A DNA stretch of 64,000 nt from Escherichia coli (GTDB lineage: Bacteria > Pseudomonadota > Gammaproteobacteria > Enterobacterales > Enterobacteriaceae), in NCBI RefSeq assembly GCF_050920415.1, contig NZ_CP169309.1, one strand, 5' to 3'. The notes under the pieces are model-generated. The model was not told where the DNA came from, ran no database searches, and saw only the letters and a program-made list of their open reading frames with translations. A program made the position numbers and the translations under genes. Every line of letters begins with the position of its first letter. Positions within the stretch are counted from its first letter, which is position 1. Of this stretch, positions 5,285 through 56,723 are shown in pieces.

Positions 5285-5698
5285 ATGAGCGAAGCACTTA
5301 AAATTCTGAACAACATCCGTACTCTTCGTGCGCAGGCAAGAGAATGTACACTTGAAACGCTGGAAGAAATGCTGGAAAAATTAGAAGTTGTTGTTAACGA
5401 ACGTCGCGAAGAAGAAAGCGCGGCTGCTGCTGAAGTTGAAGAGCGCACTCGTAAACTGCAACAATATCGCGAAATGCTGATCGCTGACGGTATTGACCCG
5501 AACGAACTGCTGAATAGCCTTGCTGCCGTTAAATCTGGCACCAAAGCTAAACGCGCTCAGCGTCCGGCAAAATACAGCTACGTTGACGAAAACGGCGAAA
5601 CTAAAACCTGGACTGGCCAGGGTCGTACTCCAGCTGTAATCAAAAAAGCAATGGATGAGCAAGGCAAATCCCTCGACGATTTCCTGATCAAGCAATAA
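5285..5698 (+). CDS. hns: Nucleoid-associated protein H-NS
   Basis: 137-aa [47 protein letters not shown]...[10 protein letters not shown]; recognised H-NS sequence. Confidence 0.97.
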
Positions 5699-10585: not shown

Positions 10586-10670
<85 letters not shown>

Positions 10671-10704
10671 TCTCAAGCATTACATCAAAATTTGAATTAT
10701 CCCT

Positions 10705-10770
<66 letters not shown>

Positions 10771-10789
<19 letters not shown>

Positions 10790-11506
10790 TCACTTTCAAA
10801 AGTTCCTGAAATCCCCAACAAATCCACAATTAAATATTCTGCCCATGCGGGGAAGGATGAGAAGCTTCGACTAAGGTTCGACTCGAGCGCCAGCGAGAGA
10901 GCGTTGCCGCAGGCAACGACCCGTAGGGCGAAGCGCGCAGCGCTGAGTAATCCTTCCCCCACCACCATCACTTTCAAAAACCCCTGTATTCTCCAACGAA
11001 TCCGTAACTGAATATTCTGCCCATGCGGGGAAGGATGAGAAGCTTCGACTAAGGTTCGACTCGAGCGCCAGCGAGAGAGCGTTGCCGCAGGCAACGACCC
11101 GTAGGGCGAAGCGCGCAGCGCTGAGTAATCCTTCCCCCACCACCATCACTTTCAAAAACCCCTGTATTCTCCAACGAATCCGTAACTGAATATTCTGCCC
11201 ATGCGGGGAAGGATGAGAAGCTTCGACTAAGGTTCGACTCGAGCGCCAGCGAGAGAGCGTTGCCGCAGGCAACGACCCGTAGGGCGAAGCGCGCAGCGCT
11301 GAGTAATCCTTCCCCCACCACCATCACTTTCAAAAACCCCTGTATTCTCCAACGAATCCGTAACTGAATATTCTGCCCATGCGGGGAAGGATGAGAAGCT
11401 TTGACTAAGGTTCGACTCGAGCGCCAGCGAGAGAGCATTGCCGCAGGCAACGACCCGTAGGGCGAAGCGCGCAGCGCTGAGTAATCCTTCCCCCACCACC
11501 ATCACA
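10771..11506 (+). repeat. tyrT-operon 178-bp tandem repeats (4 full units starting at 10771, 10949, 11127, 11305, plus a 24-bp partial); rtT RNA/tpr region
   Basis: Each unit starts with the tRNA 3' motif AATCCTTCCCCCACCACCATCAC; exact 178-bp period read from the sequence; copies near-identical apart from the first unit and two substitutions in the fourth. Confidence 0.9.
11391..11480 (+). pseudogene. tpr: tpr (protamine-like peptide) frame interrupted by TAA at codon 6
   Basis: ATG AGA AGC TTT GAC TAA... encodes MRSFD-stop; the same TAA is present in all four repeat copies. Read-through would give the Arg-rich 29-aa peptide I recall for K-12 tpr (from memory). Confidence 0.35.
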
Positions 11507-20454: not shown

Positions 20455-22251
20455 ATGCTTAAACGTTGTCTCTCTCCGCTCACCCTGGTTAATCAGGTTG
20501 CGCTTATTGTGTTGCTTTCTACTGCTATTGGACTGGCGGGGATGGCGGTTTCTGGCTGGCTGGTACAAGGCGTTCAGGGCAGCGCCCATGCGATCAACAA
20601 AGCGGGATCGCTGCGCATGCAAAGTTACCGTCTGTTGGCGGCAGTGCCATTAAGCGAGAAAGACAAGCCCTTAATTAAAGAGATGGAACAAACGGCATTT
20701 AGCGCCGAGTTAACCCGAGCAGCAGAACGAGACGGACAACTGGCGCAACTACAGGGTTTACAAGATTACTGGCGTAATGAACTGATCCCTGCGCTGCTGC
20801 GTGCACAAAACCGCAAAACGGTGTCAGCGGATGTCAGCCAGTTTGTTGCCGGGCTTGATCAACTGGTATCTGGTTTTGACCGCACCACGGAAATGCGCAT
20901 TGAGACAGTGGTGCTGGTCCATCGGGTAATGGCGGTATTTATGGCACTTTTACTGGTGTTCACTATTATCTGGTTGCGGGCGCGACTGCTACAACCGTGG
21001 CGGCAGTTGTTGGCAATGGCGAGTGCCGTCAGCCATCGCGATTTTACCCAACGCGCGAACATCAGCGGGCGCAACGAAATGGCTATGCTTGGAACTGCGT
21101 TGAACAATATGTCTGCAGAACTGGCGGAAAGTTACGCCGTACTTGAGCAGCGGGTTCAGGAGAAAACCGCCGGGCTGGAACATAAAAATCAGATCCTCTC
21201 TTTTTTATGGCAGGCCAACCGCCGTTTGCATTCCCGCGCCCCGCTGTGTGAACGCCTGTCACCTGTACTCAACGGCTTACAGAATTTAACCCTGCTACGT
21301 GATATCGAACTGCGGGTGTATGACACTGATGATGAAGAGAATCATCAGGAGTTTACCTGCCAGCCAGATATGACCTGCGATGATAAAGGCTGTCAGCTCT
21401 GCCCGCGCGGTGTACTCCCCGTTGGCGATCGCGGCACAACCCTGAAGTGGCGGCTGGCTGACTCTCATACGCAGTACGGTATTTTGCTGGCAACCCTGCC
21501 GCAGGGGCGTCATCTTAGTCATGATCAACAACAACTGGTGGATACCCTGGTTGAACAACTCACCGCCACGCTTGCGCTGGATCGCCATCAGGAACGTCAG
21601 CAACAGTTGATCGTGATGGAAGAGCGTGCCACCATTGCGCGCGAACTGCATGATTCTATTGCCCAATCTCTCTCTTGCATGAAGATGCAGGTGAGTTGTT
21701 TACAGATGCAGGGCGATGCGCTGCCAGAAAGCAGCCGCGAACTGTTAAGTCAGATCCGTAACGAACTGAATGCATCCTGGGCGCAGTTGCGTGAATTGCT
21801 CACCACATTCCGCTTGCAGCTCACCGAGCCTGGATTACGTCCGGCACTGGAAGCGAGTTGCGAAGAATACAGCGCCAAATTTGGCTTCCCGGTGAAGCTG
21901 GATTATCAATTGCCGCCTCGTCTGGTGCCTTCGCATCAGGCAATCCATCTGTTGCAAATTGCCCGTGAGGCATTAAGTAACGCCCTCAAACATTCGCAAG
22001 CGAGTGAGGTCGTGGTGACAGTGGCGCAAAACGATAATCAGGTCAAACTGACCGTCCAGGATAACGGCTGCGGCGTGCCTGAAAATGCCATCCGCAGCAA
22101 TCACTACGGCATGATAATAATGCGCGACCGTGCGCAAAGTTTACGAGGCGATTGCCGCGTCCGCCGTCGTGAATCAGGTGGCACCGAAGTGGTGGTCACC
22201 TTTATTCCCGAAAAAACTTTCACAGACGTCCAAGGAGATACCCATGAGTAA
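20455..22251 (+). CDS. narX: Nitrate/nitrite sensor histidine kinase NarX
   Basis: 598-aa ORF with two TM segments, HAMP, H-box ELHDSIAQ and ATPase domain. Confidence 0.96.
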
Positions 22252-22894
22252 TCAGGAACCGGCTACTATCCTGCTGATCGACGATCACCCGATGCTGCGA
22301 ACTGGCGTAAAACAGCTTATCAGTATGGCACCAGATATCACCGTGGTTGGCGAAGCGAGTAATGGCGAACAGGGTATTGAACTGGCGGAGTCTCTTGATC
22401 CCGATTTGATCTTGTTAGATCTCAATATGCCCGGCATGAACGGTCTGGAAACGCTGGATAAACTGCGCGAAAAGTCCCTCTCCGGGCGCATTGTGGTATT
22501 CAGCGTCTCTAACCATGAAGAAGATGTGGTCACCGCACTGAAACGCGGCGCGGATGGCTATCTGTTAAAAGATATGGAACCGGAAGATCTGCTGAAAGCA
22601 TTGCATCAGGCTGCTGCTGGCGAAATGGTATTAAGCGAAGCATTAACGCCTGTTCTGGCCGCCAGCTTGCGCGCTAACCGTGCCACTACTGAACGCGATG
22701 TTAACCAGTTAACCCCACGCGAGCGCGACATTCTCAAGCTGATTGCCCAGGGTTTGCCAAACAAGATGATTGCCCGCCGCCTGGATATCACCGAAAGCAC
22801 AGTAAAAGTGCACGTCAAGCACATGCTGAAGAAAATGAAGCTCAAGTCTCGCGTGGAAGCAGCAGTATGGGTGCATCAGGAGCGCATTTTCTGA
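22244..22894 (+). CDS. narL: Nitrate/nitrite response regulator NarL
   Basis: 216 aa starting [22 protein letters not shown]...; overlaps the narX stop by 8 nt; receiver plus LuxR-type HTH. Confidence 0.96.
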
Positions 22895-24352
<1,458 letters not shown>

Positions 24353-27614: not shown

Positions 27615-27681
27615 GAGAAAACCCCCGCACGTTGAGAGGTAAAACCTGACAACAGAACGGGGGCTAATCTTGAACCATCAA
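27615..27681 (-). ncRNA. rdl: Rdl-type antisense RNA (antitoxin), copy 1, approximate ends
   Basis: Minus-strand sequence ...AGATTAGCCCCCGTTCTGTTGTCAGGTTTTACCTCTCAACGTGCGGGGGTTTTCTC matches the Rdl RNA as I remember it; ends in its own hairpin plus U-run. Confidence 0.5.
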
Positions 27682-27729
27682 CAATTCAAGAATAGCCGCA
27701 AAATGTTGTCATTACAACAAGGCGGCTAT

Positions 27730-27837
27730 ATGACGCTCGCGCAGTTTGCCATGATTTTCTGGCACGACCTAGCGGCACCGATCCTGGCGGGGATTATTAC
27801 CGCAGTGATTGTCAGCTGGTGGCGTAACCGGAAGTAA
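27730..27837 (+). CDS. ldr: Ldr-family type I toxin peptide (35 aa)
   Basis: ATG...TAA encodes MTLAQFAMIFWHDLAAPILAGIITAVIVSWWRNRK, a single-TM peptide ending WWRNRK; near-identical to LdrA/B/C. Confidence 0.85.
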   Translation: MTLAQFAMIFWHDLAAPILAGIITAVIVSWWRNRK

Positions 27838-27885
27838 GGTGAAAACGGGCGTCAGGCTGCCGTGATGGCAATATGCGCCCGAAAC

Positions 27886-27919
27886 CGGCCGCAGGGGTAA
27901 CAGCCTGCGGCCCTTTTTG
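27886..27919 (+). terminator. Rho-independent terminator of ldr copy 1
   Basis: GGCCGCAGG-GGTAACAG-CCTGCGGCC stem-loop followed by TTTTT. Confidence 0.75.
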
Positions 27920-28150
27920 TCTTTATCTCTTCTGCAAGTAAATATTGGCAACCCGAGCTGGAAGCATCATCCAGAGCACTCATGAAACGACTGTAACAGC
28001 TGTTGAAAAACCGGAATGCACTCTTCATTGCAAACATTTCAGGGATGAAGTGAAGATGAATTGAGACGTAGTATCCACACCAAGCCGGAGTTATCCGGTG
28101 AGGCGCAATGTTGCGGGGGCTCTATCCCTGGTGGCATTGGTTGCTGGAAA

Positions 28151-28217
28151 GAGAAAACCCCCGCACGTTGAGAGGTACAACCTGACAACAGAACGGGGGC
28201 TAATCTTGAAACCAGAC
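28151..28217 (-). ncRNA. rdl: Rdl-type antisense RNA (antitoxin), copy 2
   Basis: Minus strand reads GTCTGGTTTCAAGATTAGCCCCCGTTCTGTTGTCAGGTTGTACCTCTCAACGTGCGGGGGTTTTCTC, with terminal hairpin and U-run. Confidence 0.55.
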
Positions 28218-28264
28218 ACTTCAAGAATAGCCGCAAAATGTTGTCATTACAACAAGGCGGCTAT

Positions 28265-28372
28265 ATGACGCTCGCGCAGTTTGCCATGACTTTCTGGCAC
28301 GACCTGGCAGCACCGATCCTGGCGGGAATTATTACCGCAGCGATTGTCAGCTGGTGGCGTAACCGGAAGTAA
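28265..28372 (+). CDS. ldr: Ldr-family type I toxin peptide (35 aa), copy 2
   Basis: Encodes MTLAQFAMTFWHDLAAPILAGIITAAIVSWWRNRK; differs from copy 1 at two residues (I9T, V26A). Confidence 0.85.
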   Translation: MTLAQFAMTFWHDLAAPILAGIITAAIVSWWRNRK

Positions 28373-47858: not shown

Positions 47859-48491
47859 ATGTCACTGAGCAGAACTCAAATTGTTAACTGGCTCACTCGC
47901 TGTGGAGAAATTTTCAGCAAAGAGAGCGAGTATCTTACCGGACTGGATCGCGAAATTGGCGACGCTGACCACGGGCTAAATATGAACCGTGGCTTTAGCA
48001 AGGTGGTAGAAAAACTCCCTGCTATCGCAGATAAAGATATCGGTTTCATTCTCAAGAATACCGGCATGACGCTGCTTTCCAGCGTCGGTGGTGCCAGTGG
48101 TCCGCTGTTCGGTACTTTCTTTATCCGCGCCGCACAGGCGACACAGGCACGGCAAAGCCTGACGCTGGAAGAACTGTATCAGATGTTCCGCGATGGTGTA
48201 GACGGCGTAATCAGCCGCGGGAAAGCCGAACCTGGCGATAAAACTATGTGTGATGTCTGGGTGCCGGTGGTGGAATCGTTACGTCAGTCCAGCGAGCAAA
48301 ATCTCTCTGTTCCGGTGGCGCTCGAAGCCGCCAGTAGCGTCGCTGAATCCGCTGCACAAAGTACGATTACGATGCAAGCCCGCAAAGGCCGCGCCAGTTA
48401 TCTCGGTGAACGCAGTATTGGTCACCAGGATCCCGGCGCGACCTCCGTGATGTTTATGATGCAAATGCTGGCGTTAGCCGCAAAAGAGTAA
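47859..48491 (+). CDS. dhaL: Dihydroxyacetone kinase, ADP-binding subunit
   Basis: 210 aa from ATG 47859 (MSLSRTQIVNWLTRCGEIFSKESEYLTGLDREIGDADHG...). Confidence 0.94.
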   Translation: MSLSRTQIVNWLTRCGEIFSKESEYLTGLDREIGDADHGLNMNRGFSKVVEKLPAIADKDIGFILKNTGMTLLSSVGGASGPLFGTFFIRAAQATQARQSLTLEELYQMFRDGVDGVISRGKAEPGDKTMCDVWVPVVESLRQSSEQNLSVPVALEAASSVAESAAQSTITMQARKGRASYLGERSIGHQDPGATSVMFMMQMLALAAKE

Positions 48492-52267: not shown

Positions 52268-53290
52268 ATGTCACTAACCAGACGGAGGTTTACACAGATT
52301 CTTGCGTCGACATTGTTCCTGCATCATCTGCCGTCCTTTGCACAATCAGTCAAATTCTGGGCCTCACTGACGCTTCCCGAAGCCCAAAACATTACACGCA
52401 TCGTCAGCGCAGGCGCGCCCGCCGATTTACTATTGCTGGCTGTCGCGCCAGAAAAAATGGTCGGTTTTTCCTCTTTTGATTTTGCCCGTCAGGCATTAAT
52501 TCCATTGCCAGAGCACATTCGCCAGTTCCCCAGGCTGGGACGACTCGCCGGGCGCGCCAGCACACTCTCGCTGGAAGGGCTTATGGCATTACATCCCGAT
52601 TTGGTCGTTGATTGCGGCAATACGGATGAAACCTGGATCTCCCAGGCACGGCAGGTTAGCGAACAGACACAAATACCCTGGTTATTGCTTAACGGGAAAC
52701 TGGAACAATCAGCAGAACAGTTAACAACGCTTGGCAAAACGTTAGGCGAAGAGCACCGCGCCGCAGAACAAGCCAATCTCGCCAGCCGCTTCGTTGGTGA
52801 AGCTAAGGCATTCGCCACCTCACCCGCCGCTAACCTCAGCTTTTATGCTGCGCGCGGTCCTCGAGGGCTGGAAACGGGCTTACAGGGTTCGTTGCATACC
52901 GAGGCGGCGGAATTATTAGGTTTGCACAACGTCGCGCAAATAGCCGATCGCCACGGTCTGACACAGGTTTCCATGGAAAATCTCCTGCGCTGGCAGCCGG
53001 ATATTATTCTGGTTCAGGAGGCCGTTACTGCAGATTTTATTCGTCGTGATCCTCTCTGGCAGGGCGTGAAAGCGGTTGCGGAACAACGCATCTTATTTTT
53101 AAGTGGCCTGCCCTTTGGCTGGCTGGGTGCCCCGCCGGGAATCAACCGTCTTCTGGGATTACGCAGACTTCACGCCTGGCTGGATCCCGCCATCAATCGC
53201 CAGTTTAAAAGTGACATGCAGCATTACGCCCAACTGTTCTGGCATTGCCCATTAAGTGACGCTGACTATCAAAAATTGGTGGCGAGCTAA
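52268..53290 (+). CDS. Periplasmic substrate-binding protein (FecB/BtuF-like) with twin-arginine-type signal peptide
   Basis: 340-aa ORF MSLTRRRFTQILASTLFLHHLPSFAQS...; RRRF motif then hydrophobic region and AxA-like cleavage site; first gene of a coupled operon. Confidence 0.8.
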   Translation: MSLTRRRFTQILASTLFLHHLPSFAQSVKFWASLTLPEAQNITRIVSAGAPADLLLLAVAPEKMVGFSSFDFARQALIPLPEHIRQFPRLGRLAGRASTLSLEGLMALHPDLVVDCGNTDETWISQARQVSEQTQIPWLLLNGKLEQSAEQLTTLGKTLGEEHRAAEQANLASRFVGEAKAFATSPAANLSFYAARGPRGLETGLQGSLHTEAAELLGLHNVAQIADRHGLTQVSMENLLRWQPDIILVQEAVTADFIRRDPLWQGVKAVAEQRILFLSGLPFGWLGAPPGINRLLGLRRLHAWLDPAINRQFKSDMQHYAQLFWHCPLSDADYQKLVAS

Positions 53291-54270
53291 TGAGAACCGT
53301 AAACGGATGTATTTTGCTGCTGGCAGCTATCAGTATCACTTTTGCCGCCGTAAGTGGGGCTTATCATCTCGATATACAGCAACTGCTGGCGCTCATTCTG
53401 CGTCAAGAAAATGTTCCTGTGCAGGAACAAATTGTCTTCTGGCAAATCCGCGTGCCGCGTATTCTTGCTGCGCTGTTTCTGGGCGCGGCGCTGGCAGGGG
53501 CCGGAACCACCTATCAGGGAATGTTCCGTAATCCCTTAGTGTCACCGGATATTTTAGGCGTCTCCGCCGGTGCCGGACTTGGTGCCTGCGCGGCAATCCT
53601 GTGGGGATTATCCATTGTTTACATCCAGCTGTACGCATTTTGCGGCGGGCTGATGGTGGTCGCGGGCGTCTGGTTGATTACGCGTCGGGTGACCCGCCAC
53701 GATCCGATCTTAACCCTGGTGCTGGTAGGCATTGCGTTAGGAACGTTGTGCGGAGCGGGGATATCGCTAATAAAAACGCTGGCCGATCCTTACACCCAGT
53801 TACCGTCAATTACCTTCTGGTTGCTGGGGGGGCTGTCCACCGTGACCTTACGCGATCTCTGCTATGCTGCACCGATCATTCTCATAGGCTCCTTGCCCCT
53901 GTTTTTTCTCCGCTGGCGCATGAATTTACTCACGCTTTCCGACGACGAAGCCCATTCGCTGGGACTGAACGTGACACGTCTGCGCTTTGGATTGATTGTC
54001 TGCGCCACACTCATCACCGCCAGCACGGTAGCAATAGCGGGCATAATTGGTTGGGTCGGCCTGGTCGTTCCGCACATTGCCCGCTTGTTGACCGGTCATA
54101 ACCATCAGCAGCTATTGCCCATGGCAATGTGTACTGGCGCGATTCTGCTCCTGCTTACCGATACGCTGGCACGCAGCATTGGAACAACAGAAATCCCACT
54201 TGGCATTCTGACCGCTTTTGTTGGTGCACCGTTTTTCCTGTTTTTGTTGTTACGCGGAGGTCGCCAGTGA
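53290..54270 (+). CDS. ABC transporter permease (FecCD family)
   Basis: 326-aa polytopic ORF; start overlaps the upstream stop (TAATG); FecCD-like segment SPDILGVSAGAGLGA. Confidence 0.85.
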   Translation: MRTVNGCILLLAAISITFAAVSGAYHLDIQQLLALILRQENVPVQEQIVFWQIRVPRILAALFLGAALAGAGTTYQGMFRNPLVSPDILGVSAGAGLGACAAILWGLSIVYIQLYAFCGGLMVVAGVWLITRRVTRHDPILTLVLVGIALGTLCGAGISLIKTLADPYTQLPSITFWLLGGLSTVTLRDLCYAAPIILIGSLPLFFLRWRMNLLTLSDDEAHSLGLNVTRLRFGLIVCATLITASTVAIAGIIGWVGLVVPHIARLLTGHNHQQLLPMAMCTGAILLLLTDTLARSIGTTEIPLGILTAFVGAPFFLFLLLRGGRQ

Positions 54271-55025
54271 CTTTGCTTGCCGTCCGTCATGCGTCTCTGG
54301 GTTACTCCCGCCATCCGATGCTACGCGACGTGTCCTTCACCCTGTCGCAAGGAACAATTTGTTGTCTGTTAGGAGCCAATGGTTGCGGCAAAACCACACT
54401 CATGCGCTCCATTCTTGGCGTTATACCGTTATTAAAAGGCGAGATCTTACTGGATAGCCTCCCTGTGCAGACACTCAGCCATCGCCAGCGCGCGCAGGCT
54501 ATTGCCTGGGTGCCGCAGGCGCACGACGGCATTTTTGCTTTTAGTGTGCTGGATATGGTGTTGATGGGCCTGGCCCCCACCATAGGCGCTTTTTCCGTTC
54601 CCGGTAAGCAAGAACGCCTGAAAGCAACGGAGCAACTGGAAAAGCTGGGCATTTTGCATCTGGCGACACGACGCTGGAATACACTTAGCGGCGGTGAACG
54701 TCAGCTGGCTTTAATCGCCCGTGCACTCGTCCAGCAACCGCGCTTGTTATTACTGGATGAGCCTGCCTCCAGCCTCGATTTCGGTCATCAGATCCAACTA
54801 CTGGACACGCTGGCGCAGCTCAAAAATAACGGCATGACAATGCTAATGTCGACTCATCATCCGCTCCATGCCAACGCCATTGCCGACAGCATTATCCAGG
54901 TAGAGCCAGATGGACGAGTAACACAAGGCTTACCGACCGAACAGTTAACAACGAACAAACTGGCTGCCCTGTATCGGGTTTCTGCCGACCAGATTCATCA
55001 TCACCTCTCTGCAATTAGCCACTAA
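54267..55025 (+). CDS. ABC transporter ATP-binding protein (FecE-like)
   Basis: GTG start overlapping the permease stop (GTGA); Walker A GANGCGKTT, signature LSGGERQ, Walker B LLLLDEPASSLD; the track ORF extends upstream in the same frame. Confidence 0.85.
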   Translation: MTLLAVRHASLGYSRHPMLRDVSFTLSQGTICCLLGANGCGKTTLMRSILGVIPLLKGEILLDSLPVQTLSHRQRAQAIAWVPQAHDGIFAFSVLDMVLMGLAPTIGAFSVPGKQERLKATEQLEKLGILHLATRRWNTLSGGERQLALIARALVQQPRLLLLDEPASSLDFGHQIQLLDTLAQLKNNGMTMLMSTHHPLHANAIADSIIQVEPDGRVTQGLPTEQLTTNKLAALYRVSADQIHHHLSAISH

Positions 55026-55034
55026 GGAACAATC

Positions 55035-55847
55035 ATGCTCATTGATGATATTGATTTTGCGGACCTTTACCTGCAGCAACTCAAGCTGGCCCACCGCACA
55101 GAAAAAACGCCGGATCACTGGGATCAACGGGCGGAAAAAATGGCGGAAAATTGCGCCTCGCCTACGGACAGCTACCTGCAACAACTGACCGCTAAAATTG
55201 ATCTGCAAGGCGCGCAGACCTTATTCGATATGGGCTGCGGACCGGGTACCGTATCGCTGGCGCTGGCTGACAAACTCACGACGATTTATGGCATTGATTA
55301 CAGTCAGGGGATGCTGAAGGTTGCCGCCCGTCGCGCCGCCGCGCTAAAGGCAGACAATGTCCACTGGATCCAGCGCGCATGGGAAGAGGACTGGAGTGAC
55401 CTGCCACGCTGCGATATTGCCGTGGCTTCCCGCTCCACTCTGGTGGCTGATATGCGCCAGGCAATGAGCAAACTGAATAATCAGGCACGGCTTCGCGTCT
55501 ATACGACTCATCTGGTCAGCACCTCGTTCGTCTCTCCAGCCATTCAGCGGGCGGCTGGTCGGGAAGTGATCGAATTACCCAACTATATCTTTGCGCTCAA
55601 CGTCCTGTATCAGATGGGAATTTATGCTCACGTTGATTTTATCCGCGGACAAAATTGCCCACAGGATAACAGCACCTGGGAACGTTTTGAGCAGAACGTC
55701 AGCTGGAGTCTGGGCGCGCTTAACGACGATGAGCGTGAGCGGTTATATCGCTGGTATCAACAACAAGATGCTCGTGCCCTCGCCCCTGCCAGCCGCGACT
55801 GGGCGCTCATCTGGTGGGATAGCGTACCGCAAGAGGCACTGCGATGA
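55035..55847 (+). CDS. Class I SAM-dependent methyltransferase
   Basis: 270-aa ORF with SAM-binding motif I (LFDMGCGPGTVSLALA) and acidic motif II (IYGIDYS); AAGGA SD upstream. Confidence 0.75.
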   Translation: MLIDDIDFADLYLQQLKLAHRTEKTPDHWDQRAEKMAENCASPTDSYLQQLTAKIDLQGAQTLFDMGCGPGTVSLALADKLTTIYGIDYSQGMLKVAARRAAALKADNVHWIQRAWEEDWSDLPRCDIAVASRSTLVADMRQAMSKLNNQARLRVYTTHLVSTSFVSPAIQRAAGREVIELPNYIFALNVLYQMGIYAHVDFIRGQNCPQDNSTWERFEQNVSWSLGALNDDERERLYRWYQQQDARALAPASRDWALIWWDSVPQEALR

Positions 55848-56698
55848 TTTTCCTTTCTCAGGCACAAATCGATGCGTTACTGCTGGAAGATATCCAGGGC
55901 GGTGACCTGACCACGCGAGCATTAAATATTGGACACCAGCATGGCTATATAGAGTTTTTTCTCCGTCAGGGCGGCTGCGTCAGCGGCATTTCTGTCGCGT
56001 GTAAGATGTTAACTACGCTGGGATTAACTATTGATGACGCGGTCAGCGACGGTTCACAAGCGAACGCGGGTCAGCGGCTAATCCGTGCGCAAGGTAATGC
56101 CGCAGCACTTCATCAGGGATGGAAGGCAGTCCAGAATGTGCTGGAGTGGAGTTGCGGTGTTTCTGATTATCTCGCTCAAATGCTGGCGTTACTTCGTGAA
56201 CGTTACCCTGATGGCAATATCGCCTGCACCCGAAAAGCAATTCCGGGTACCCGCTTACTGGCCTCGCAGGCAATTCTGGCTGCCGGAGGACTGATTCATC
56301 GTGCCGGATGTGCGGAAACCATATTATTGTTTGCCAACCACCGCCATTTTCTTCATGACAATCAGGACTGGTCAGGCGCAATCAATCAGTTACGTCGCCA
56401 CGCACCCGAGAAGAAAATAGTTGTTGAAGCCGACACGCCGAAAGAGGCAATCGCCGCGTTACGCGCGCAACCAGACGTACTTCAGCTCGACAAATTTAGT
56501 CCGCAACAGGCAACTGAAATTGCGCAAATAGCACCGTCGCTGGCTCCCCACTGCACGCTGGCTCTGACCGGCGGAATTAATCTGACAACACTCAAAAATT
56601 ACCTCGACTGCGGCATTCGCCTTTTTATTACCTCCACGCCTTACTACGCGGCACCTGCTGACATTAAAGTCAGTCTGCAACCCGCAGCCTCTATTTAA
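55844..56698 (+). CDS. ModD-family protein (quinolinate/nicotinate-nucleotide pyrophosphorylase fold)
   Basis: 284-aa ORF MIFLSQAQIDALLLEDIQGGDLTTRAL... with TRKAIPGTR motif typical of the NadC/ModD family; ATG overlaps the methyltransferase stop (ATGA). Confidence 0.7.
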   Translation: MIFLSQAQIDALLLEDIQGGDLTTRALNIGHQHGYIEFFLRQGGCVSGISVACKMLTTLGLTIDDAVSDGSQANAGQRLIRAQGNAAALHQGWKAVQNVLEWSCGVSDYLAQMLALLRERYPDGNIACTRKAIPGTRLLASQAILAAGGLIHRAGCAETILLFANHRHFLHDNQDWSGAINQLRRHAPEKKIVVEADTPKEAIAALRAQPDVLQLDKFSPQQATEIAQIAPSLAPHCTLALTGGINLTTLKNYLDCGIRLFITSTPYYAAPADIKVSLQPAASI

Positions 56699-56723
56699 TT
56701 CTTTGTTAAACGGAATTTATTCT

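Follow-up and report, generated by a model that had tools for sequence, protein, structure and literature searches.

Introduction

Two pairs of convergent genes of Escherichia coli, narL/ychO and ycgR/emtA, end so close to each other that hardly any DNA is left between them, which raises the question of where their transcripts terminate and whether the resulting overlap serves a regulatory purpose. Both junctions lie in a stretch of 64,000 nucleotides (64 kb), called the window hereafter, which is E. coli chromosome with 100% identity to strain MFDS1022581 (NZ_CP169399.1) and about 97-98% identity to most other E. coli.

Both pairs have been described before, through the K-12 annotation, a published excludon map and a published table of Rho regions. 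ychO-narL and emtA-ycgR belong to the 165 convergent excludons of MG1655 identified with ExcludonFinder (NAR 2025, Table 1, PMC12288877), which are defined by an overlap of the transcription units derived from RNA-seq in 50% or more of 58 samples. K-12 possesses 704 convergent pairs (2026 preprint), so that about 23% of the convergent pairs of E. coli (165/704) overlap by this definition, and overlap alone is no proof of regulation. What the present analysis adds is that the 3'-end signals of narL and emtA appear to be located within the coding sequence (CDS) of the convergent neighbour, the stem-loop found in ycgR being the main example. The reading that we favour, with a probability of about 0.7, is that a known architecture of Rho-dependent 3' ends is embedded in the CDS of the neighbour and is maintained in part through the synonymous sites of the latter.

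Results

Geometry of the two junctions

Both pairs display the geometry of convergent excludons, being adjacent genes on opposite strands arranged tail to tail, and their CDSs do not overlap in the window, where the gaps are 0 nt for narL/ychO and 1 nt for ycgR/emtA (Table 1). The TAA stop codon of ychO, read as TTA at 22895-22897 on the shown strand, directly abuts the TGA of narL, and a single T separates ycgR from emtA, as claimed in the preliminary description of this DNA. The sequence, the list of open reading frames (22130..22894 (+) and 22895..24325 (-) at the first junction, 59199..59933 (+) and 59935..60660 (-) at the second), the PGAP annotation of the identical genome NZ_CP169399.1, which places the four gene boundaries at the same positions, and the K-12 MG1655 reference (ychO 1273784..1275178, narL 1275179..1275829, emtA 1243180..1243791, ycgR 1243793..1244527) all agree on these points. 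The suggestion that ychO might be a pseudogene with another 3' end was ruled out, the gene being intact and its C-terminal domain being kept in 62 species.

Table 1. Genes, candidate 3'-end signals and published Rho peaks at the two junctions (window positions; + is the shown strand).
Feature	Position	Strand	Basis or remark
narL CDS	22244..22894	+	PGAP narL; Pfam Response_reg and GerE; stop TGA 22892-22894
ychO (inverse autotransporter) CDS	22895..24289	-	Pfam IAT_beta, E = 1.7e-103; PGAP
Stem-loop, candidate protective structure for the narXL mRNA 3' end	22952..22981	+	58-87 nt past the narL stop
C-rich, G-poor tract, candidate rut for narXL	22982..23070	+	Directly downstream of the stem-loop
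Peak of published Rho region, narL strand	23112	+	K-12 1274961(-) via gap-free alignment
ycgR (flagellar brake) CDS	59199..59933	+	Pfam PilZN and PilZ; stop TGA 59931-59933
Peak of published Rho region, emtA strand	59676	-	K-12 1244050(+) via K-12 coordinates
22-bp stem-loop, candidate emtA mRNA 3'-end stem-loop or terminator	59811..59865	-	70-124 nt past the emtA stop
Sole intergenic base between ycgR and emtA (T)	59934		Sequence, annotation
emtA (lytic transglycosylase) CDS	59935..60546	-	Pfam SLT; stop TAA, read as TTA at 59935-59937
Weak candidate hairpin and U run, ycgR-sense	60016..60065	+	Inside the emtA CDS, about 83-130 nt past the ycgR stop

Since the gaps measure 0 and 1 nt, a transcript can include a complete stop codon only by entering the neighbouring gene, so that the transcription units overlap. 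The earlier proposal that the two transcript pairs necessarily overlap at their 3' ends is thus borne out by the geometry, by the listing of both pairs (PMC12288877) and by the Rho regions located inside the neighbours (PMC7815308). Termination within the coding regions with no overlap, named in the preliminary description as an outcome that would contradict it, is geometrically impossible. Its statement that there is no room for terminators holds for the intergenic space and fails overall, since apparent 3'-end signals sit within the CDS of the neighbour.

The frequency of such junctions was estimated on 38 convergent pairs taken from the annotation of this genome, corresponding to the window and five 50-kb samples. 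Five of the 38 pairs were separated by at most 1 nt or overlapped (0, 1, -63, -14 and -4), three of them within the window and two among the 27 pairs outside it. The excess in the window is mild and post hoc, and convergent pairs devoid of a spacer, which occur no more than by chance, are neither rare nor new.

Conservation of the junctions

The narL/ychO and ycgR/emtA regions were recovered from 5,421-5,422 of 5,426 complete E. coli genomes with an identity of at least 94.7%, and both junctions are a core-genome feature of E. coli. A scan with NarL using one genome per species yielded 80 Enterobacterales loci, in 62 of which a convergent ychO-like gene directly follows narL. Among these 62 loci the gap was -4 nt in 23, 0 in 12, 1-3 in 10, 5-11 in 9 and 21-46 in 5, the remaining 3 loci showing an apparent overlap of 48-54 nt; by genus, it was 0 in Salmonella, -4 in Klebsiella, 1-3 in Enterobacter and -4 in Serratia and Rouxiella. 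The exact spacing drifts and a real spacer is almost never seen, so that the lack of a spacer is the conserved trait. In the 23 cases at -4 nt the two stop codons share CTAA, TTAA or CTAG, exactly as in the known 4-nt tail-to-tail stop palindromes (TTAA, CTAG, CTAA), whereas the TGA|TTA arrangement of E. coli is one step away from them and leaves the CDSs of both pairs non-overlapping. At the other junction, ten relatives located through their YcgR homologues all kept the convergence of ycgR and emtA, with gaps of 11, 11, 35, 0, 1, 12, 11, 1, 36 and -4 nt; the two CDSs overlap in the relative L100. Both tail-to-tail junctions are ancient.

A rival explanation is that both pairs are functional excludons with overlaps selected for regulation, in which transcription of one gene represses its partner through collision of RNA polymerases or cleavage of the RNA duplex by RNase III, with mutually exclusive expression of narXL and ychO, and of ycgR and emtA, as the prediction. 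We hold this explanation to be very improbable. It can draw on the overlap of both pairs in RNA-seq data and on the higher synteny of excludon pairs in general (PMC12288877), on the conservation of the junctions across Enterobacteriaceae, on the expression of ychO and its induction in vivo (PMC4787180), and on the head-on RNA polymerase collisions documented at convergent genes (bioRxiv 10.1101/2022.10.23.513370). However, reciprocal expression of either pair was not found in the literature, the same RNA-seq overlap is shared by about 23% of convergent pairs, and the geometry of the overlap varies freely between -4 and +46 nt. Embedded 3'-end signals combined with a deletion bias would explain the conserved adjacency equally well. 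Moreover, nitrate sensing and YchO are not known to be functionally linked, and neither the paper on ychO in APEC (PMC4787180) nor literature searches connected ychO with narL or nitrate. That ychO and narXL are transcribed at the same time is plausible, and the overlap may have some consequence for the partner gene, such as the transcriptional interference that the preliminary description held possible for narXL and ychO.

Published Rho regions and searches for terminators

DirectRNA-seq performed with and without bicyclomycin (Adams et al., eLife 2021, PMC7815308 Supplementary file 2) had revealed a Rho region beyond each of narL and emtA. The first one, 1274961(-), is antisense to ychO and has a Rho score of 10.6 (p = 5e-14), with upstream/downstream reads of 101/6 in untreated cells and 649/408 under bicyclomycin (PMC7815308). 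It belongs to the narL strand and lies 218 nt beyond the narL CDS, inside ychO. The second one, 1244050(+), is antisense to ycgR with a Rho score of 3.7 (p = 5.5e-7) and reads of 91/20 and 136/111, respectively (PMC7815308); it corresponds to the emtA strand, 259 nt beyond the emtA CDS and inside ycgR. As the alignment between K-12 and the window is gap-free here, the two peaks map to approximately the positions given in Table 1. In the same file, the nearby genes chaC, dauA and cvrA also have Rho regions on their antisense strands, which makes termination inside the convergent neighbour a regional norm. The bicyclomycin-sensitive reads probably represent narXL and emtA transcripts; instead of read-through, antisense transcripts initiated within ychO or ycgR could also be their source.

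The tables of PMC7815308 list no discrete Term-seq 3' ends at 12749xx-12751xx or 12438xx-12440xx, and the TERMITe and SMRT-Cappable-seq tables, in which the four genes are not mentioned, list none at either hairpin. Low expression in aerobic LB is one possible reason for these empty tables. Consensus scans for intrinsic terminators gave matches at chance level near both junctions and called none at either hairpin, and at neither of them is a GC-rich stem-loop directly followed by a U-rich tract. Searching Rfam 15 at both junctions returned nothing at the gathering score, the sole match with E ≤ 1 being a chance snoRNA.

For the reciprocal transcripts, no embedded structure was detected where the ychO transcript enters narL (recoding z no lower than -1.4). 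The ycgR transcript would encounter a weak candidate hairpin followed by a U run inside emtA (Table 1), with a recoding z of about -2.65, which the consensus terminator scan did not call. No Rho region has been published for the ychO-into-narL or the ycgR-into-emtA strand.

Several of these observations would also suit a non-functional junction. In this view neutral deletions removed the spacers, Rho halts read-through as part of its generic surveillance of antisense RNA that is not translated, and the hairpins are side effects of codon usage and of the conserved motifs of the proteins. Richness in C and sensitivity to Rho are general properties of the antisense strands of genes, as attested by the many antisense Rho regions of PMC7815308 Supplementary file 2, the terminator-like consensus matches near the junctions stay at chance level, and the length of the gap drifts. 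The structures themselves, described below, are what makes this explanation quite improbable in our view.

The stem-loop within ycgR

Codons 205-223 of ycgR contain, on the emtA-sense strand, a stem-loop of 22 bp (59865-59811). The 125 nt that follow the emtA stop (59810-59934, minus strand) fold with -54.3 kcal/mol (z = -3.9), and the stem outranks every other 60-nt fold of the whole window in stability, at -36.4 kcal/mol among 25,576 windows of both strands (mean -12.6, sd 4.5 kcal/mol). When the same peptide was recoded with synonymous codons, the native sequence reached -35.9 kcal/mol as compared to -12.4 ± 3.2 kcal/mol for the recodings (z = -7.3, 0/500). In a recoding scan of 50 CDSs on both strands this stem was the top outlier of 6,798 tests. 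Such a hairpin goes far beyond what the peptide needs, which argues against a by-product of coding.

The stem sequence is the same in K-12, and in Salmonella, Citrobacter and other relatives the recoding z ranged from -4.3 to -6.1. By contrast, Enterobacter and Lelliottia encode a nearly identical peptide with no such hairpin (recoding z about -0.5) and harbour instead a GC hairpin in an intergenic gap of 35-36 nt (-25 and -20 kcal/mol). This also speaks against a structure imposed by the protein, but is no more than suggestive, the contrast being a single phylogenetic event. Read on the emtA-sense strand, the stem gains 5-10 kcal/mol in stability over the ycgR-sense strand, and two of its G·U pairs are invariant in 11/11 sequences. 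Between E. coli and Salmonella, synonymous divergence amounts to 4/18 in the stem codons as compared to a mean of 50% over the ycgR gene. Covariation at this hairpin was not significant in the 11 sequences, which are too conserved for it.

The sequence located 3' of the hairpin has a C/G ratio of only 1.2-1.33. The stem is directly followed by AUGGUUUCAUUCUU, a weak and interrupted U tract, and this would be in line with an alternative in which the embedded hairpins act as canonical or bidirectional intrinsic (Rho-independent) terminators for one or both genes. The TransTermHP predictions, which report 'overlapping terminators' for 146 of the 165 convergent excludons (PMC12288877), point in the same direction. 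However, a 22-bp stem with such a U tract is atypical of intrinsic terminators.

The stem-loop and C-rich tract within ychO

The narL-side stem-loop lies within ychO codons ~436-446 (motif QRVSSNEITL) and has a minimum free energy (MFE) of -14.1 to -14.9 kcal/mol. In E. coli it is followed on the 3' side by CCCCUGGUUAUC, which is not a U tract. No other stretch of the region is as rich in C and as poor in G as the one that comes next, with a C/G ratio of 1.87 at 22970-23069 (+), i.e. in the top ~5% of the window. The case is much stronger on the emtA side than on the narL side. The narL-side stem is antisense to a conserved YchO motif, so that protein constraint confounds its conservation. In a gap-free alignment of 63 sequences in codon register, 77.9% of the cells were paired, as compared to at most 51% when the partner columns were slid, and one pair showed UA/UG/CG alternation. 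RNAalifold found no consensus structure when applied to all 63 sequences downstream of narL, and the stem is missing from several genera.

Synonymous recoding of the peptide gave z = -1.4 (p = 0.09) in E. coli and values between -2 and -3.8 for the majority of core genera, with a median of -1.9 over sequences that are not phylogenetically independent. A hairpin whose sequence codes for a conserved Ig-like motif and whose stability in E. coli exceeds that of recoded versions only slightly would suit a non-functional junction. Strand asymmetry was not observed, with 49 G·U against 32 A·C pairs and an equal MFE on both strands, so that the strand on which the hairpin acts is not assignable from the sequence.

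What appears to be the best single piece of evidence for the narL-side signals comes from E. albertii, where ychO has been lost through a 1.27-kb deletion (window 23039-24308) that left a remnant of about 130 nt beside narL. In this remnant the hairpin block is identical at 33/33 positions and the C-rich block GACAATCGCCAGCGATTGnTTGCCCCTTCCCC at 32/33, whereas the spacer past the narL stop is 73% identical and a 13-nt deletion breaks the frame. The longest identical run had a permutation p of 0.03. That the hairpin and the C-rich block stayed intact after ychO loss argues against a non-functional junction.

Salmonella, Klebsiella, Pluralibacter and others possess on the narL-sense strand an outer stem, GGTCAGCG...CGCTGACC, followed directly by TTTTT(T), an arrangement that resembles an intrinsic terminator. 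These U runs lie opposite Glu-Lys codons of a conserved turn and may therefore be incidental. E. coli has neither the outer stem nor the U run, and this fits with the strong Rho dependence observed there. Given that the E. coli hairpin is devoid of a U tract, that read-through past it is strongly bicyclomycin-sensitive (Rho score 10.6) and that the consensus scan called no terminator at either hairpin, intrinsic termination at these sites is in our opinion unlikely.

Discussion

The reading that we prefer, Rho-dependent 3' ends embedded in the convergent neighbour, can be described as follows. Intergenic spacers may be absent because the signals for 3'-end formation lie inside the CDS of the neighbour. 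Transcription of narXL would continue beyond the narL stop and cover, in antisense orientation, the terminal ~200 nt of ychO, where the RNA would expose the stem-loop with no U tract and then the rut-like tract, leading to Rho-dependent termination close to the published peak (Table 1). Likewise, transcription of emtA would run antisense into the 3' end of ycgR, past the 22-bp stem, and would be terminated around the second peak, at least partly by Rho. Mature 3' ends may then arise from exonuclease trimming back to the stem, in which case the hairpins probably mark the mature 3' ends of the narXL and emtA mRNAs, and the neighbouring mRNAs would share approximately 90-260 nt of complementary sequence.

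This arrangement resembles the Rho-dependent mRNA 3' ends outlined by Dar and Sorek (2018, PMC6061677), in which a stem-loop with no U-rich sequence has a rut immediately downstream and the stem shields the trimmed 3' end from exonucleases. As far as that outline goes, the narL side matches it, with a stem devoid of a U tract, a C-rich tract and bicyclomycin-sensitive termination (PMC7815308). The difference is that here the stem-loop and the candidate rut are embedded in the CDS of the convergent neighbour and kept through its synonymous sites. A likeness also exists to bidirectional intrinsic terminators and programmed RNA polymerase collisions (bioRxiv 10.1101/2022.10.23.513370), since the genes are convergent, either strand can form a stem-loop close to the gene boundary and polymerases could meet head-on. 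In contrast to these, the E. coli junctions have neither an intergenic terminator nor flanking A and U tracts, and their stems lie 58-124 nt inside one gene instead of between genes.

With regard to convergent excludons (PMC12288877), these exact pairs are listed, with overlapping units and short or absent intergenic regions, whereas the mean intergenic distance of the listed pairs is 95 nt as compared to 0 and 1 nt here. The list rests on RNA-seq coverage only, and mutual exclusion and RNase III processing form the functional core of the concept. A bolder version, in which the pairs are selected regulatory excludons and the synonymous-site hairpins in ychO and ycgR fix the extent of the sense-antisense duplex, is a long shot. 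If it were true, nitrate signalling through narXL and the YchO adhesin would be mutually exclusive, as would the c-di-GMP brake YcgR and the cell-wall hydrolase EmtA, and Enterobacter and Lelliottia would have escaped the coupling by gaining an intergenic hairpin.

The location of these signals has consequences for the genetics of both loci. A clean deletion of ychO or ycgR also takes out what appear to be the 3'-end signals of narXL or emtA, so that the phenotypes of such mutants need complementation and a check of the neighbouring gene; in the APEC ychO knockout, for instance, the homology arm consisted of the last 50 nt of narL, including the stop codon (PMC4787180). The ycgR stem-loop represents a clear case of a CDS carrying a second, non-coding constraint for the gene on the opposite strand. 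Synonymous changes in ycgR codons 205-223 could thus alter the expression of emtA, which is of relevance to genome recoding and refactoring and to analyses of evolution at the codon level.

Conservation of the ychO 3' end and convergent junctions in the window

In E. albertii NBRC 107761 (locus L005 of the Enterobacterales comparison), a deletion of 1.27 kb took nearly all of ychO, and a 3' remnant of about 130 nt was retained beside narL. The hairpin and C-rich block found inside the ychO 3' end are almost perfectly kept within this remnant. In a separate group of loci, L017 (a MAG), L055 (Shimwellia) and L056 (Entomohabitans), the ychO frame has no stop close to the narL stop and apparently overlaps the narL coding sequence by 48-54 nt.

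At the ycgR/emtA junction, the weak hairpin listed below gave a z score of about -2.65 when the stability of the native fold was compared with synonymous recodings of the same peptide, and it is possible that it represents a ycgR 3'-end signal embedded in emtA. A fold at the dhaL 3' end ranked second by stability among the 60-nt folds of the window (-34.4 kcal/mol); it lies on the antisense strand of codons 176-195 of 210, where the recoding z was -4.77, and a same-strand gene is absent from its vicinity.

The block between treA and ymgE carries genes for an iron ABC transporter, a SAM methyltransferase, ModD and a TonB-dependent receptor. At this position K-12 differs, ycgY adjoining ymgE there, and a TonB-dependent receptor also occupies the same position in Salmonella and Citrobacter relatives.

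Coordinates of features in the window
Feature	Position	Strand	Detail
tRNA-Tyr genes (two), then four tandem RtT repeats	10586-11501		Rfam RF00391, 124-133 bits each
Equivalent of the E. albertii deletion	23039-24308		
Ldr toxin/rdlD antitoxin, type I module	27616-28372		two copies
dhaL 3'-end fold	48386-48445	-	
Block, treA to ymgE interval	52268-58694		6.4 kb
Weak hairpin, then UUUUU	60016-60065	+	inside emtA, ~83-130 nt past ycgR stop
cvrA	61655-63391		578-aa ORF
Hypothetical gene (PGAP)	63263-63421	opposite to cvrA	52 aa

Rho termination antisense to convergent genes

PGAP labels cvrA as a pseudogene with a missing C-terminus despite its full ORF, and calls a hypothetical gene which overlaps its end. 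Together (61655-63421), the two correspond to the published ymgM-cvrA excludon. Published Rho termination regions (PMC7815308, Supplementary file 2) are also located at K-12 1272857(-), 1259355(+) and 1240513(+), with window equivalents near chaC, dauA and cvrA. In the chaC case, ychN runs into the convergent chaC and the Rho region is antisense to chaC, while further regions are antisense to dauA and cvrA, both of which have a convergent neighbour. Since the Rho regions of this neighbourhood are antisense to genes with a convergent neighbour, termination inside the convergent neighbour is the regional norm.
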